Of a DNA stretch of 64,000 nt, positions 3,501-41,230 are shown one piece after another. Both the position numbers and the translations under genes were made by a program. The notes under the pieces are model-generated. The model worked only from the letters and a program-made list of their open reading frames with translations, had not been told where the DNA came from and made no database searches. This DNA comes from Candidatus Marinacidobacterales bacterium (lineage in GTDB: Bacteria > Acidobacteriota > Vicinamibacteria > Marinacidobacterales > SMYC01): positions 960,001 to 1,024,000 of the forward strand of contig CBDCYI010000004.1 in assembly GCA_965224085.1 (NCBI GenBank). Reading direction: 5' to 3'. How positions within the stretch are numbered: the first letter of the stretch is position 1; the number at the start of each line of letters is the position of its first letter.

Positions 3501-4865
3501 TTATCGTAATAGGTGCCTTGCCATTACCAACAGGTTGCAGGTGATGATGGAACTCCATACGTAGGATTTGAAAGAAGGCAATGAGCGCCATGTGCATCGG
3601 TCGAGACCAAAGACTCGTTTCAAGAACGAAATGACGCCTTCGATTCCGCAGCGAAATCGCCGTAGGCGTTGATAGACCCAGGAACTCTTGACCATATCGG
3701 TCACCGCGAAGTGAGCCTTGGTAAAGGCAACATCTTCAACTCCCTTGCCTTTGATGGCTTCCAAGTTTGCCTTTGAAGAAAACGCGCCATCGTAGGCAAC
3801 CTGGCGCGGGGCCCGTTCGTAGAGTTCGACTTGACGGTCGATCATGGTTTCCGCGAGAGTTGAATCGGACGGATTCCCATCCAAGATCACGCAATCCAAA
3901 ATCATCGAGGACGAGCCACCAGTCAAACACACCTTGTGACCGTAGAGAGTCTCGCGCCGGTCTTTGCGAATAATGTCGGTGTGTTCTTCGAAGATCGAAA
4001 CGACCTTTTCCTCCGCAGGCACACGCTCTTCATCAATCACTCTACGCCGAGTTTGGTTGATGACTTTTTCGGTGAGGACGAGAAAGTGCTTAAAATCCGC
4101 GGCGATCTTCTCCGCACTCGCTCGCTTCACCGGCTCGGTCAAGCCGGACTCGTCCAACTGGTCTGCAACGCGTTGAGCGGAGCGATAGGTTTCTTCCGAC
4201 ACCTTCAGTAGATCTCGATAGACGCGACGCCTTTGTTCCTTATCCTTCGCGTTTAGAACTCCCAGTCGACGTCTCTTCGCTCGACGCGTTCGATTGCCGA
4301 AGACCACTACTGTACCCAGCAGTTCGCGAGTTCGGCACATGAGGCGAGTGAGAACTCGGACGCAGTCATAAAGAAGCTCGGAGTCCGTAGGAGAATGAAT
4401 ATTCGACTCCACTACCGTGCAGTCCACTCGTACTTTTCTTCCTTTTTCGATCGCGGTCTTCTCGGCAACACTCACCAACTCTCGGTTGATTTTCTCCAGC
4501 GTTTCGAACTTCACGGCTTTGATGTTTGCTGCTAGGGTCGACTTCGACGGGCTCGGCTCTATGATGCCGAGCTGGCAAAACGTCCGATAGCTTCGAGAGT
4601 CTGCCAAGTGAAACGCCAGCTCCCGATAGGTGAACTGATTCAGCTGCTTGACCAACAACGCCCGGAGAACCTGCTCCGCGCTCATTCCCCCACGACCAAC
4701 ATCGCTCCCTGCCGATGGGGTGACCGACCTCAGGTCTTGCAGTACCAGCTCATTCAGCTTAGGATGGGCATCGAGCAGCGATGATATCGTTTCGAGCTCG
4801 CGTGCGTGCTCCAGCTCCAGCCAGGGCTCGCGAAGGCTTGGTTGTGGGTTGATCGTTTTTCGCAT
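3501..4865 (-). CDS. DDE transposase (copy 1)
   Basis: 454 aa; RVDCTVVESNI (D), VAYDGAF (D), RCGIEGVIS (E) motifs. Confidence 0.92.
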   Translation of the reverse strand: MRKTINPQPSLREPWLELEHARELETISSLLDAHPKLNELVLQDLRSVTPSAGSDVGRGGMSAEQVLRALLVKQLNQFTYRELAFHLADSRSYRTFCQLGIIEPSPSKSTLAANIKAVKFETLEKINRELVSVAEKTAIEKGRKVRVDCTVVESNIHSPTDSELLYDCVRVLTRLMCRTRELLGTVVVFGNRTRRAKRRRLGVLNAKDKEQRRRVYRDLLKVSEETYRSAQRVADQLDESGLTEPVKRASAEKIAADFKHFLVLTEKVINQTRRRVIDEERVPAEEKVVSIFEEHTDIIRKDRRETLYGHKVCLTGGSSSMILDCVILDGNPSDSTLAETMIDRQVELYERAPRQVAYDGAFSSKANLEAIKGKGVEDVAFTKAHFAVTDMVKSSWVYQRLRRFRCGIEGVISFLKRVFGLDRCTWRSLPSFKSYVWSSIITCNLLVMARHLLR

Positions 4866-4965
4866 TTAGGGCTGGTCTCCTTTGGAGTTAAGTCGTTTAG
4901 AATCTGCGTTTTTGTCGACTCGATACTAAACGACACTCCCTCAGACGATTAGCCCTAAATTTGCG
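4861..4965 (-). promoter_or_regulatory. long hairpin sequestering the transposase SD and ATG (also 6551-6655)
   Basis: Complementary arms ATTTAGGGCT/AGCCCTAAAT, GGAGT/ACTCC and GTCGTTTAG/CTAAACGAC enclose the AAGGAG SD and reach the start codon. Confidence 0.7.
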
Positions 4966-5016
4966 ATTACCCCTTTTTTCTCAACCTCTTACACCTGTCA
5001 GGACGGGTACTAACTA

Positions 5017-37235: not shown

Positions 37236-37240
37236 GCTAG

Positions 37241-39243
37241 CCCATGTTTACCCTTTATGGGCACCCTAACGCTCGTAAGTGACTGAATTCAAAGGAACGG
37301 GGGTTGAATTTTGCCCAAAACGTAGAGACAGATATTGTGCTTTGAGCGCCATTAATACGTTGTAATCGTGGACAATGATATGTAGTATGCGTGAGGACAG
37401 GTTATGTTCTTCCGCATCGTTCGGGCCGCAGGCGGCAAAGGGGTTCAACATGAGTATGTCCGCCTGGTCGAGTCGTATCGGGAGCACGGCAAGCCGAAGC
37501 AACGCGTAGTGTGCAACTTGGGGCGCAAGGATCTCCTAGTTGCCAATCTCGACTCCCTCAATCGGTTGCTTGGGGCCGGTGAACCGGCCGACACCGAGCG
37601 AGCAGCCGAGCAGATCGCGGGGGCAGACGCGTGGGATTGGGGTCCGATGGTGGTGACGGCGACGCTGTGGCGCGAGCTCGGACTGGAGCAGATTCTCGAC
37701 CGGCTCGGAGGCCGCGGCAAGCGCGACGGAGTGGCGCTAAGCGAGCGAGCTTTGGTGCTGGTCGCCAACCGGCTATGTGCTCCGTCAAGCGAGCACGGTC
37801 TGGCGCGCTGGCTCGAGACCGACTTCGTCTGCGACCGGCAGGGGCGGCGGTGGGTGCCGCAGTGGCGCGATGATGGGGAGCGGCGAGCGAGTCGCTCCCC
37901 GCGGGTTCGCGTGGAGTTTTGCCAACTCAAGCAATGGTACCGAACGCTCGACCAGCTGCATGCCCGCAAAGAACAGATCGAGAAAGAGCTGTTTTTGCGC
38001 TTGCGGGATCTGTTTTCGCTTGAGGTTGACATGGTGTTTTACGACCTGACGTCGACGTACTTCGAAGGTCAAGGCCCTCCGGGGCTCGGCGCCCACGGCT
38101 ACAGTCGCGACCGCAGACCGCGTAACCGGCAAGTGCTTGTCGGTCTGGTGATGGTGGACGGTTGGCCGATCGCCCACCATGTTTTCGCCGGCAACTGGCG
38201 TGACGCGAAAACGGTGCCGCAGGTGCTCAACGATCTCAACGAACGATTCGGTTTGCACCGCGTGGTTTTTGTCGGCGACCGAGGGATGGTAACGAGCGAC
38301 AGCCTGGCGGTGGTGCGCTCGCGCAAGCAGGGCTATCTCGTCGGGCTGCAAAGACGACGGCGCGAGGAGGTCTATCGTTACATCGAGCGCGCCAGCGGAG
38401 AGTGGATCGACTGCCCTGGTGGCATCACGGTGAGCGAAAAAGCCGAGCCACCTAAGACTCGTGTGCAAGAAGTCCGCTCCGAGCAGTCTGGCGTGCGCAT
38501 CTTCGTCGTTCACAGCGACGAAAGGCTCGCCTACGAGCGCGGGCAGAGGCTGCGGGCCATGGGACGTGCCCGTGCGGCATTCGAGGCCCTCGAGCGCCGC
38601 GTGCGCGAGGGACGATTGAAAGCCCCCGAGAAAATCGGTGCCGCCGCCGCGCGCATACAGGCACGCCACCACGGTCACCGTTACTACGACTGGGAGTACA
38701 AAAACGCTCGCTTCCGCTTCTTCGAGCACCCGGTCAACCTCAAGCGCGAGCAAGCCTACGAGGGTAAGTACGTTATTCAAACCGAGGAGCAAAACCTCTC
38801 TCCGGTCGACGCCGTGCGCCTTTACAAGGACCTAAACGAGGTCGAGCGAGCCTTCTCATGCCTTAAGGATGTCATTGAGATGCGTCCCGTTTACCACCAG
38901 ACCGATGAGCGTGTGGGGGCACATCTTTTCGTAGCTACGCTGGCCTTCCTTGTGCATCGGGCTCTTGAGAAAAAGCTCAAGGTCGCCGAACTCGACCTGT
39001 CCGCAACCGAGGCACTACAAGCGCTACGCTCGGTCCGGCTCGTCGACTTACAGCTGGGTTCTGGGCGGACCAAGCGCGTCGTCACGCGCGGCACCGCTCG
39101 CGCCAACTCGATCCTGACTGCACTCGGAATCGTTGAACGCGACCCGCCAGCCTTCTCCGAGGAGGTGCTGTCAGCGTAGAGACAAACCGCGGATCTCAGT
39201 CCTTTGTTTATGATGACTTAGAGACCTAAAAGGGAAACATGGG
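37241..39243 (+). mobile_element. IS1634 family element, CTAG target duplication
   Basis: IRs CCCATGTTTACCCTTT / revcomp CCCATGTTTCCCTTTT; CTAG at 37237-37240 and 39244-39247. Confidence 0.88.
37404..39179 (+). CDS. IS1634 family transposase
   Basis: YVRLVESYR..GKPKQR, FYDLTSTYFEG, GYSRDRR, FVGDRGM, VERAFSCLK..RPVYH. Confidence 0.92.
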   Translation: MFFRIVRAAGGKGVQHEYVRLVESYREHGKPKQRVVCNLGRKDLLVANLDSLNRLLGAGEPADTERAAEQIAGADAWDWGPMVVTATLWRELGLEQILDRLGGRGKRDGVALSERALVLVANRLCAPSSEHGLARWLETDFVCDRQGRRWVPQWRDDGERRASRSPRVRVEFCQLKQWYRTLDQLHARKEQIEKELFLRLRDLFSLEVDMVFYDLTSTYFEGQGPPGLGAHGYSRDRRPRNRQVLVGLVMVDGWPIAHHVFAGNWRDAKTVPQVLNDLNERFGLHRVVFVGDRGMVTSDSLAVVRSRKQGYLVGLQRRRREEVYRYIERASGEWIDCPGGITVSEKAEPPKTRVQEVRSEQSGVRIFVVHSDERLAYERGQRLRAMGRARAAFEALERRVREGRLKAPEKIGAAAARIQARHHGHRYYDWEYKNARFRFFEHPVNLKREQAYEGKYVIQTEEQNLSPVDAVRLYKDLNEVERAFSCLKDVIEMRPVYHQTDERVGAHLFVATLAFLVHRALEKKLKVAELDLSATEALQALRSVRLVDLQLGSGRTKRVVTRGTARANSILTALGIVERDPPAFSEEVLSA

Positions 39244-39270
39244 CTAGCAGCTTACTTATCTGGACTCCTC

Positions 39271-39556
39271 AATCAACACCTTTCTCAAAAAAGTCTTCCT
39301 CAGAGCTGCTCGTCCAAATCGGTGACGAGTGGGTCAGACTGCAAACATATCTACGGCCTCAGTGAGGAGCGTCTTGGGTGCTCCGGGCCATGACGGAAAA
39401 TCCGCGCGCGAGGAGCCAATCACTTTGAGCGACCTCTGAGGGCCAGTGTTGCTATCGGCTTGACCCCGCGCCGGTCCGACCGGTACGCCATCAGTTGGAT
39501 GGGTATCGTCGCAGCCTCTGTTGGAAGGGAAGAAGGAAAACACGAAAGTGGAGCCT
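39271..39556 (-). ncRNA. candidate seekRNA/bridge RNA of the IS1111-type element
   Basis: About 290-nt non-coding region 3' of the transposase with stems and segments matching the target and the circle junction; RNA ends are not determinable from sequence. Confidence 0.65.
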
Positions 39557-40591
39557 CTATGCGGCCGCGGGCACCGACTGGAATTCACTCTCGCGGGTGG
39601 AGACGGCCCAGACTATCCGGGCGAGTTTGTTGGCGACAGCAATCGCGGCTTTGTTGTGTCCCCGCGAGCGGTGGACCTTCCGCGCCCAGGCGCGGAGCTT
39701 GTCGGGCGGGCTCTTGCTGACGTTGGCCGCTCGGAGCACGGCGCGTCCGCCCTGCGTGAGGAGCGTACGGAGGTAGGAGTCGCCACGCTTGGTGATGCGC
39801 CCGAGGCGGCGAATGTCACCACTGGAGTTCTCTTTGGGAACGAGGCCGAGGTAACTCGAGAAGCGGCGTCCCGATGGGAAGCGGCGCAGATCCCCAACGA
39901 AGCCGACGATGGCGGTCGCGGTCAGAAGTCCGATGCCGGGAATGGTGAGAAGTCGTTGCACCTCAGGAAGCTGCTTGGCGAGCGCCTTGAGCTCGTGCTC
40001 GATGCCAGCGCACTTGTCCTTGAGCTCTCGAATCTCGGAGCACGCATCACGCAGGTGCGGACGGAGCACGTCGGGCAAATCAGAATCAGCGTCTTCGACG
40101 AGCTCGGAGATGGCGGGCACGACGAAGTGAGCGCCCTTGGGGATGAAGAGTCCGAGCTCGCGCAGGATCCCGCGTACGGCATTGATGCGTGCGGTCCGTG
40201 TGGAGAGCCATCCTGAGCGTAGGCGATGGAGCGCGGCGAGGGTGTGCTGGCGCACGGACTTGATGGGCACCGAAAGAATCTCCTCGTTCCGGTAAGCCTC
40301 GAGCAAAGCTTTGGTGTCCGCGCGGTCGTTCTTGCTCCCGCGTCGATACGGCCTTACGAGGTGAGGTGGGAGCAGGACGACGTCGTGTCCCAACCGTCGC
40401 AACGTCCTTGCCCAAAAGTGAGCCGAGCCGCAGGCTTCGAGAAGCACGGTGGCAGCGCTCTGTTTCGCAAAAAACGACACCAACTTGGGTCGACTCACAC
40501 GGAGTTGCTTGGACACTTTCCCCGCTTCGCGCGAGATGGCAATCTCGAAGACGTTCTTTGCAAGATCCACAGCGATCGTCGTATCTTTCAT
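39557..40591 (-). CDS. IS110 family DEDD recombinase/transposase
   Basis: IAVDLAK, LLEACG, KNDRAD, TIPGIG, LGLVPKENSSG, AVANKLAR; GGAGGAG SD upstream of ATG 40591. Confidence 0.93.
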   Translation of the reverse strand: MKDTTIAVDLAKNVFEIAISREAGKVSKQLRVSRPKLVSFFAKQSAATVLLEACGSAHFWARTLRRLGHDVVLLPPHLVRPYRRGSKNDRADTKALLEAYRNEEILSVPIKSVRQHTLAALHRLRSGWLSTRTARINAVRGILRELGLFIPKGAHFVVPAISELVEDADSDLPDVLRPHLRDACSEIRELKDKCAGIEHELKALAKQLPEVQRLLTIPGIGLLTATAIVGFVGDLRRFPSGRRFSSYLGLVPKENSSGDIRRLGRITKRGDSYLRTLLTQGGRAVLRAANVSKSPPDKLRAWARKVHRSRGHNKAAIAVANKLARIVWAVSTRESEFQSVPAAA

Positions 40592-40648
40592 TCGGACTCC
40601 TCCTTTTTCGATGCGTTCTTTCGACTGACTTTGGCACATCGATGCCGT

Positions 40649-41050
40649 CTATGTCAGCGGAGGAGTCCATCCCATCACTTGAAGCGGCTCTACTTTGACG
40701 CTCTTGTAGCGAAAAAGCGTCACTTTCCCCGCCGGAAGCCCATGCGGCTTCCTCACATCCTTGACCCGGGCCACGTGCACGGCCACCTTCCCCGCGTGCT
40801 TGGCCTTCGAATAGCGGGCTGCGAGCGCAGCCGCAAAACGAAGCGTATCCCGCGGAAGCGTGTCGAGTCCGTCAGGGTTCCGGATCACCACGTGTGAGCC
40901 GGACTCGCCCGCAACATGCATCCAAAAATCTTTTTGCGCCGCGATCTTGAAAGTCAGGACGTCGTTGTCCGAAGCGGTTCTCCCAACGAGGATTTCCATC
41001 CCGTCGGGCGAGTCAAAGCTCCGCGCAACGTCTTCTACGCCCTTGGCCAT
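40649..41050 (-). CDS. NFACT RNA-binding domain protein (DUF814); last codons replaced by IS sequence
   Basis: ILVGRTASDNDVLT, DFWMHV....GSHVVI, AAALAARYSK. Confidence 0.85.
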   Translation of the reverse strand: MAKGVEDVARSFDSPDGMEILVGRTASDNDVLTFKIAAQKDFWMHVAGESGSHVVIRNPDGLDTLPRDTLRFAAALAARYSKAKHAGKVAVHVARVKDVRKPHGLPAGKVTLFRYKSVKVEPLQVMGWTPPLT

Positions 41051-41230
41051 CGGCCTAATCATGCCGGTAGGCGCACCGCTCCGACAGTCGTCCGCTCTCG
41101 TGCTGGTGGATGGCAACGTTGAAAGGGGGACATGTAGGACAGTCCCCGGTTCTTTTGCGCCGGAGGAATCTTTGTCGCGGTCATTGCGCCCGCCCGGATC
41201 GCTACCGCCCGTCCTCGACTGGCAACGGGA

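Follow-up and report, generated by a model that had tools for sequence, protein, structure and literature searches.

In the window, the 64,000-nucleotide stretch of a Candidatus Marinacidobacterales genome analysed here, positions 39257–40677 of the minus strand very probably hold an intact copy of an IS1111-group insertion sequence (IS; IS110 family) which carries its own guide RNA, has the terminal repeat of IS1-like elements as its target and, in this particular copy, lies at an off-target site. Its guide RNA is readable in the DNA sequence itself and can be compared with dozens of independent insertions, with uninterrupted targets and with one off-target event and its ancestral empty site, which makes this element a natural case for an IS1111-type system. 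It adds a new programmed target, an IS1-type terminal repeat in uncultured Acidobacteriota, and represents natural reprogramming inside an RNA family common to ISPa25 and IS5075. The known picture of RNA-guided recombination is unchanged. The covariance model of the RNA and one helix in particular, H1, have a bearing on donor binding by IS1111-type RNAs, a question which arises because the solved structures that we found cover IS621-type systems.

The ends of the element were set by aligning 11 left and 14 right ends from the genome, together with 42 unique left junctions (coordinates are on the minus strand unless noted otherwise). The constant part of the copies runs from ATGGGATGGACTCC... 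to ...GGAGTCCAGATA, with TG adjoining on both sides in on-target copies, and the length of 1421 bp counts the left-junction TG as the element's copy of the core. In order, the element consists of a 7 bp left extension that includes the core (TGATGGG, 40671–40677), a left subterminal inverted repeat (ATGGACTCCTCC, 40659–40670), the body, a 12 bp right subterminal repeat (TGAGGAGTCCAG, 39260–39271) to which the left repeat is complementary at 10 of 12 positions, and a 3 bp right extension (ATA, 39257–39259) that was placed from the end alignment and by comparison with ISPa25. Subterminal repeats with asymmetric extensions of 7 bp (left) and 3 bp (right) are the rule for IS1111 elements according to PMC11187229 (Siddiquee et al., 2024), and the corresponding left extension of ISPa25, TGATGGA, is also 7 bp long.

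The transposase gene (39557–40591) encodes 344 amino acids and has AAGGAGG 6–14 nt upstream. Its product contains the N-terminal DEDD/RuvC-like domain (DEDD_Tnp_IS110; PF01548, E = 4e-11) and the C-terminal domain (Transposase_20; PF02371, E = 9e-26) of the IS110 family, and matches NCBIfam NF033542, 'IS110 family RNA-guided transposase', with 306.8 bits against a cut-off of 140. IS1111 transposases are given as 330–350 residues long with a GL-P----S(t)G motif in section 6 of PMC11187229; the window protein falls in this range and has GLVPKENSSG, which reads as GL-P----SG. As in IS1111 elements, most of the non-coding sequence is 3′ of the gene: about 300 nt separate the stop (39557) from the right end (39257), compared with 86 nt 5′ of the start. 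The initial annotation had called an intact IS1111-type element, and the two domains, the NCBIfam match, the subterminal repeats and the 3′ non-coding region bear this out, although its boundaries of 39254 and 40680 are three bases off at each end. The same 6.87 Mb genome contains at least nine full-length copies at 98–100% identity, with intact open reading frames (ORFs) and distinct unique flanks, in addition to fragments; the covariance model described below finds 17 copies of the RNA gene.

The left junction of the window copy reads CGCTTC-AAGT-GATGGGA (~40671–40686) and the right junction CCAGAT-AAGT-AAGCTGCTAG (~39241–39262). AAGT had been taken as a shared 4 nt core in the initial annotation. 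It does flank the window copy on both sides, but the other copies, which read ...AAG-TG/ATGGG at the left and CCAGATA/TG-TTGCTAC at the right (the slash marks the end of the element's constant part), have only TG in common. The first A of AAGT at the left varies among copies (A or G), and the right junction is variable after CCAGATA. Since merging the two junctions at TG gives the uninterrupted site, the core is the dinucleotide TG, and since TG alone is common to the junctions the element is 39257–40677. In the window this TG is at 40676–40677 of the left junction, and it is the sole left/right overlap in on-target copies; the core position of the right junction (39255–39256) is occupied by AG, which is target-derived and mismatched to the donor TG, where other copies have TG. 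By comparison with uninterrupted sites, the two junctions share only the 2 nt core, and insertion is without target duplication, as is characteristic of IS1111.

Judged from the junctions and from uninterrupted repeats, the preferred target, GGTGCTTCCGCCATCAAG-TG-TTGCTACGCC, is at positions 19–20 of the terminal inverted repeat that IS1-family-like elements share with their miniature derivatives. Counted by eye, 34 of the 42 unique left junctions, which come from this genome and related metagenome-assembled genomes (MAGs), lie at this one position of the repeat, the site- and orientation-specific behaviour expected of IS1111. These 34 junctions read GGTGCTTCCGCCATCAAG-TG/ATGG with a few substitutions allowed, the on-target right junctions read CCAGATA/TG-TTGCTACGCC..., and beyond the repeat the flanks differ from copy to copy. 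The eight other left junctions comprise six off-target copies in this genome and two homologues with other guides (L037 and L059). In genomes of the same genus the uninterrupted repeat is ...CCATCAAG-TG-TTGCTACGCC, with CAAG-TG-TTGC around the core, and the exact uninterrupted site GGTGCTTCCGCCATCAAGTGTTGCTACGCCGC is found at six loci of two of these genomes. The preferred target can be written as CCATCAAG-TG-TTGCTAC.

The target repeat bounds a 1.2 kb unit with a 368-residue ORF which matches DDE_Tnp_IS1 (Pfam, 35.7 bits, above cut-off); we call this unit 'IS1-family-like' because its NCBIfam IS1 score of 84.5 is below the cut-off of 100. The same repeat bounds miniature repeat pairs of 110–156 bp. 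Two other identities for the repeat were rejected: the start of a repeated gene (ATGGCGGAAGCACC...), for which the downstream ORFs are short and unrelated, and a Tn3-type 38 bp repeat, which was dropped as the bounded 1.2 kb unit matches IS1 transposase models. Unoccupied copies of the repeat are numerous, with 43 pattern matches in this genome. The genome has no exact unoccupied copy of the 13 nt preferred site and three sites with one mismatch, one of them inside an RNA-gene copy that has itself been rearranged. Of the 11 left junctions found here, 6 are off-target, and the preferred sites in this genome may be saturated.

Four guide segments can be recognized in the 3′ non-coding region. 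The right target guide UAGCAACACU (39445–39454) lies on the 5′ side of the predicted target-binding loop and pairs with the target top strand AG-TG-TTGCTA; its reverse complement, AGTGTTGCTA, agrees at 10 of 10 positions with the consensus target derived from the other copies and the uninterrupted sites. The left target guide GCUCAAAGUG (39421–39430) is on the 3′ side of the loop, has the same polarity as the top strand of the target (..TCAAG-TG) and can be aligned with ...CATCAAG-TG either as AAGUG without a gap or as UCAA-GUG with one A looped out. The two target guides overlap on AGTG in the target, as is expected of an IS1111-type seekRNA or bridge RNA. The left donor guide, AGAUAUG (39346–39352), is identical to the right end AGATA plus the core TG. 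In the right donor guide region UUCCGUCAU (39390–39398), UUCCGU can pair with the left end ATGGGA if a U:G and a G:T pair are counted. Of the segments complementary to the top and to the bottom strand, the top-strand one is the more 5′, as in IS1111 seekRNAs (PMC11187229, section 9).

All of the strings quoted in the initial annotation are present on the minus strand where it had placed them, as are its GGCC/GGTC stem (39431–39444) and second hairpin (39355–39389). Its right target guide (TAGCAACACT) is confirmed in full by the independently derived target, and its left donor guide (AGATATGT, 39345–39352) by identity with the right end plus core and by covariation in homologues. Its left target guide (CGCTCAAAGT, 39422–39431) matches the target as UCAA(A)GUG but over five contiguous nucleotides when ungapped, and its right donor guide (TTCCGTCAT) has distal bases which covary with the left end but also contributes CCGUCAU as one strand of an RNA helix with 39488–39494. 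Compared with the flanks of other copies, the preferred target predicted there, CGCTCAA-AGT-GTTGCTA, is exact in its right half and only approximate in its left half, the observed target being CCATCAAG-TG-TTGCTAC.

A scan of species-representative genomes yielded 60 homologous loci, with identities to the query of 93–99% in Marinacidobacterales MAGs and 45–63% in MAGs from other Acidobacteriota, Gemmatimonadota and Actinomycetota. Their 3′ non-coding regions have a strongly conserved scaffold with variable tracts exactly at the guide positions. The right target guides of homologues match their own right flanks (for example L058, CGGTTGTTA; L064, ACCCTGCTA; L066, GCCGTGTTA; L073, ACGCTGTTA; L093, ACGGTGTTA). 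A permutation test exchanged flanks between 12 distinct guide families. With the right target guide, the longest common stretch averaged 6.11 for cognate and 3.95 for non-cognate flanks, and 2 of 20 000 permutations reached the observed sum; with the left target guide the values were 4.19 and 3.61 (79 of 20 000). Guides and flanks thus covary across the homologues. The longest common stretch was used because the guide register shifts by 1–2 nt in L037 and L064, for which reason a fixed-register reading was rejected. Two misses were kept as cognate, L062, in which the search pattern mis-located the right end, and L070, which is at a contig end.

The donor guides also follow the element ends. 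The left donor guide tracks the right end as AGAUA with AGATA, AUAUA with ATATA, AUAGAUU with ATAGATT in IS5075 and AUCUAUG with ATCTATG in an IS of an E. coli plasmid; the ISPa25 guide is AUAUACG. For the left end, inspection by eye of ATGGxA indicates that x is matched in the right donor guide as A:U, G:U, C:G and T:A.

The RNA region itself (39322–39516, about 195 nt) matches the covariance model with 166 bits, which defines a predicted extent only. The model was built from 16 sequences and its fold was tested on an alignment of 24; of 150 further genomes sampled within the phylum, 4 also gave matches to it. In the alignment 92.4% of 866 cells are paired, compared with 23–50% in slid controls, and 18 of 37 pairs show compensatory change, compared with 8.5 ± 1.6 in shuffles (none of 500 reach 18). 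The supported helices are a 5′ hairpin (CCGG-UCGGA-CCGG, 39471–39483; helix 2, 95.8% paired, two compensatory pairs), a long stem, a stem by which the target loop is closed (helix 4, 97.6% paired, in which the 3′ strand AUUGGCU at 39414–39420 pairs with 39454–39460), a small hairpin inside that loop (GGCC-CUCAGA-GGUC, 39431–39444; helix 5, 76% paired, three compensatory pairs) and a second hairpin between the donor guides (GGCC...GGAGC/GCUCC...GGCC, 39355–39389; helices 6 and 7, 98.9 and 83.8% paired). To these we add helix H1, in which CUGAUGG (39488–39494), the same sequence as the left-end top strand, pairs with 39390–39396. H1 is outside the model that made the alignment, yet 92.5% of its cells are paired, and its pair 27/142 occurs as CG (12), GC (8) and UA (1). 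The pairing in H1 puts the donor nucleotides at a multi-helix junction, a location described for many IS1111 orthologues by Durrant et al. (2024; PMC11208160). A single-sequence minimum free-energy fold of the non-coding region was no better than shuffles (z = −1.03) and pairs the guides, and was not used. An Rfam scan of 39150–40750 with E values up to 10 gave no matching family, the two hits (mir-1910 and an L31 leader) being at chance level.

Comparison with relatives places the window copy at an off-target site, CTTCAAG-AG-TAAGCTG, in the last codon of a gene for an NFACT-R domain protein. Uninterrupted sites at this locus in three same-genus genomes have the form GAGCCGCT(T/A)CAAGAGTGAG: one (G003) reads GAGCCGCTTCAAGAGTGAG, encoding EPLQE followed by a stop, and the others (G004 and G001) have the same uninterrupted site with substitutions. 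In the window the order is GAGCCGCTTCAAG-TG-element-AG-TAAGCTG, an IS1634-family element and then CTCAGCGCGG, where the relatives' sequence resumes. Together, the empty sites and this order identify the target as CTTCAAG-AG-TAAGCTG (AG-core site CTTCAAGAGTAAGCTG). The IS1111-type insertion is not present at this site in any of four same-genus genomes (4/4). In the left half of the site, 8 of 11 positions agree with the left target guide (CGCU..AAG.G), whereas in the right half only the first base after the core matches the ideal site, and the core is AG rather than TG, differing in its first base. If the element works as IS621 does, a mismatched core would be expected to leave TG at the left junction and AG at the right one after replication. 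The initial annotation had guessed that this copy might be off-target, and that guess is supported; the 2 nt bulge by which it had fitted the right half is replaced by a near-zero match past the first post-core base and an AG core.

The NFACT-R gene (40678–41116) had its last codon and stop displaced by the insertion. The open frame now runs into the element (40649–41116), with the loss of the last residue and the gain of nine, so that the protein ends in ...EPLQVMGWTPPLT* where relatives have ...EPLQE. Because the frame stays open, the gene is probably still functional.

The features above are consistent with the following scheme. The element encodes a 344-residue DEDD RNA-guided recombinase and, downstream in the right-end non-coding region, a predicted bridge or seek RNA. 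In this RNA an internal loop made up of the right target guide, the small hairpin and the left target guide would bind the target, and the donor-binding nucleotides (right guide at ~39391–39398 and left guide at 39346–39352, flanking the second hairpin) surround a multi-helix junction instead of forming a simple loop. By analogy with ISEc11 and IS621, the element would excise as a circle with the junction ...CCAGATA-TG-ATGGGA..., the RNA would pair with both strands of the circle junction and both target strands around the 2 nt core, and the recombinase would then exchange strands at the core without target duplication. Joining 39257–39260 to 40671–40677 in this hypothetical circle would create TATGAT, a −10-like hexamer by eye; the nearest TTGATT is just 12 nt upstream of it, and by eye there is no −35-like hexamer at a usable spacing, so that a promoter at the junction is not supported. 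Four RNA libraries from sponge metagenomes (metatranscriptome contigs, queried with 39200–40730) contain pieces of the element at a depth of 2–8, for which DNA carry-over is possible. The loose ends of these contigs match the on-target flanks of other copies, which suggests that close relatives of this genome live in the sampled sponges.

A number of observations weigh against the interpretation given above. The left target guide matches the preferred target over just five contiguous nucleotides, or seven with the looped-out base. The single-copy homologues L064, L069, L071, L076 and L088 fit their guides with one or two mismatches or in a shifted register (L069, L071, L076 and L088, with one or two mismatches, were retained in the permutation test), and in the L039 family, with transposases about 95% identical, the left donor guide ends in ...ACG where the junction has ...ATG. 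Because of kinship among the homologues, the shuffle and permutation figures make the sequences look more independent than they are; moreover, the alignment (A3) was fitted to the structure of the model, H1 excepted, and the shuffle counts are not probabilities. A CGGA/UCUG stem that would close the donor-binding loop is paired in 51.7% of cells and was rejected, and the proximal seven nucleotides of the right donor guide (CCGUCAU) are paired in H1 in the free RNA, and H1 would have to be opened for donor pairing there. On the side of expression, no contig from the four RNA-library runs (contigs only) covers 39408–39511, and a promoter and terminator scan gave no σ70-like promoter and one terminator-like site, on the wrong strand.

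These points have to be set against the alternatives. Individual guide matches are short (5–10 nt), and they might be chance matches, with the protein alone selecting the site. We find this barely credible, since the right target guide, with its 10/10 match, had been predicted while the target was still unknown, since guides and flanks covary over the 12 guide families (2 of 20 000 permutations) and since the same RNA family has been experimentally linked to targeting in ISEc11, ISKpn4 and ISPa11 (PMC11187229). A narrower objection, which we consider unlikely, is that 39390–39398 is not a donor guide but only the 3′ strand of H1 plus a linker, so that the protein recognizes the left end through the subterminal repeats while the RNA pairs with the right end and the target. 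The near-complete pairing of H1 with compensatory changes is in keeping with this, as is pair 27/142, at which L062, ISPa25 and the L073 type keep the RNA–RNA pair and lose complementarity to the left-end TG; in addition, PMC11187229 describes an 82 nt seekRNA with only target matches as sufficient for ISEc11. What argues for a donor guide is that x in ATGGxA is followed by the base facing it in four classes, one of which is IS5075 (CUCAU facing ATGAG). H1 alone would not demand this tracking unless its 5′ strand also follows the left end, which it partly does. A more speculative and, in our view, doubtful idea is that H1 (39488–39494 with 39390–39396) is a built-in RNA copy of the left end and that the donor is captured by a strand swap in which each RNA strand pairs with one left-end strand. 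The right donor guide forms the 3′ strand of H1, the 5′ strand CUGAUGG compares with GTGATGG in the left-end top strand, and left end, guide and anti-guide change together among elements of the window type, ISPa25, IS5075 and the E. coli plasmid IS. If true, the opening of H1 would read both right-donor strands, or would gate donor binding (excision versus insertion) by an RNA switch; no such swap forms part of the IS621 model.

It could also be argued that the family is now inactive in this genome, its copies being relics spread by duplication or recombination and its guide matches a record of past activity. The gap in RNA-library coverage at 39408–39511, the lack of a promoter in the scan and the presence of several truncated, nested or tandemly rearranged copies point in this direction. 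We nevertheless regard it as improbable: at least nine full copies are 98–100% identical with intact ORFs and different unique flanks, the window insertion is not at this site in the four same-genus genomes, and no exact unoccupied target remains (three with one mismatch), as expected after recent spread. For the window copy itself, a crossover at the 4 nt AAGT with the empty site CGCTTC-AAGT-AAGCTGCTAG (CTTCAAGTAAGCTG) and right-half guide pairing through a 2 nt bulge, as first proposed, is very improbable. AAGT is indeed present at both of its junctions, and TGCTA is displaced by 2 nt to the right of its place in the ideal target. On the other hand, TG alone is common to the junctions of other copies, uninterrupted on-target sites show a 2 nt overlap, and TGCTAG comes in part from the IS1634-family element, which is not at this site in relatives. 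The empty sites of the three same-genus genomes (CTTCAAGAGTGAG) are 2 nt longer than the proposed CGCTTC-AAGT-AAGCTG and keep the conserved ...EPLQE-stop frame. The most consistent interpretation is an RNA-guided insertion sequence with a TG core, in a copy inserted off target.

Among known systems, a tblastn comparison with plasmid records gave identities to the window transposase of 47.4% for ISPa25, 40.5% for ISShdy1, about 37.5% for IS5708 and 34.5% for IS5075. The RNA model matches directly 3′ of transposase genes in ISPa25 (94 bits), the E. coli plasmid IS (46), IS5075 (36.7) and ISShdy1 (15.6), and the position of these matches beside such transposases indicates one RNA family. ISPa25 is the closest named transposase found, with its identity extending over 99% of the protein. 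It shares the left end (TGATGGA followed by ATGGACTCCTCC), the right end (..GTCCAT followed by ATA) and the 7/3 extensions, and H1, the target loop and the donor segments of its RNA can all be aligned with the window RNA. The two differ in target, ISPa25 being located in an integron cassette array beside ..CTTGTTAGCC whereas the window family is guided to an IS1-like repeat (AGTGTTGCTA), in core (CG compared with TG) and in the hosts of the window family, which are uncultured Acidobacteriota.

The same habit, insertion into the terminal repeat of another transposon, is shared with IS4321 and IS5075, which Partridge and Hall are said to have reported in 2003 as inserting site- and orientation-specifically in such a terminal inverted repeat. 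These elements have the same layout, and the left donor guide of IS5075, AUAGAUU, matches its own right end. They differ in protein sequence (34.5% identity for IS5075), in their target, the 38 bp repeat of the Tn21 family (Tn3-type), and in subterminal repeat and core. In PMC11187229, ISPa25, ISKpn4 and ISPst6 form a subgroup of IS1111 elements which target attC; the window family does not insert in attC of integron cassettes but in IS1-like inverted repeats. The non-coding region 3′ of the transposase, the 5′ position of the top-strand match, matches that overlap in the target and the lack of target duplication are common to the window element and to ISEc11, ISKpn4 and ISPa11 as described there. 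The seekRNAs of those three elements co-purify with the transposase and are reprogrammable (Siddiquee et al., 2024), whereas the guide RNA of the window element is predicted from sequence. The IS621 bridge RNA has, according to Durrant et al. (2024; PMC11208160) and Hiraizumi et al. (2024), four guides each with the 2 nt core, tolerance of rG:dT wobble pairs and discontiguous right-donor pairing. The window RNA likewise has four guides which each include the core; in IS621 the RNA is in the left end, its guides come in the opposite order and each of its two loops is a simple internal loop. The window transposase aligns with solved structures (IS621 and ISCro4) over the C-terminal domain only (IS621, E = 6.7e-8).

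The neighbouring IS1634-family element (37237–39247, plus strand, 2012 bp) encodes a 591-residue transposase (NF033559, 325 bits), has the ends CTAGCCCATGTT...AACATGGGCTAG and occurs in the genome at least 20 times as near-identical full copies. Only 9 bp separate it from the IS1111-type right end, same-genus genomes have no IS1634 copy at the site, and eight copies show no consistent target duplication.

Partial copies of the right part of the IS1111-type element, in tandem or nested, are found at G000:C5:1163413-1163743, C4:1232216-1232926, C9:514575-515896 and C9:653254-653818. They are fused, precisely at TG, to sites inside the element, for example CTC-TG-AGGAAG (near element position 1370) and CAG-TG-GTGAC (near 860). 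These joins look like recombinase events at pseudo-targets within the element followed by deletion, with an assembly artefact also possible.

Genome-wide, the IS1-like elements and miniature pairs share a terminal repeat starting GGTGCTTCCGC (for example L031 ~3805–5001, G000:C9:551510 and, on the minus strand, C5:1945042). The repeat has the subtypes ..AAGTGTTGGTGG.., ..GATTGTTGCTACG.. and ..AACCCTAATCG.., and the IS1111-type element uses only the GTTGCTAC subtype. Finally, the homologues of 45–49% identity (L065–L073, L076, L083 and L093) have right flanks ..(C/G)TGTTAGCC(GG), with ..CGNCGGCTGCA upstream, resembling the ISPa25 flank CTTGTTAGCC. From this resemblance, they may be attC-targeting elements in soil Acidobacteriota.

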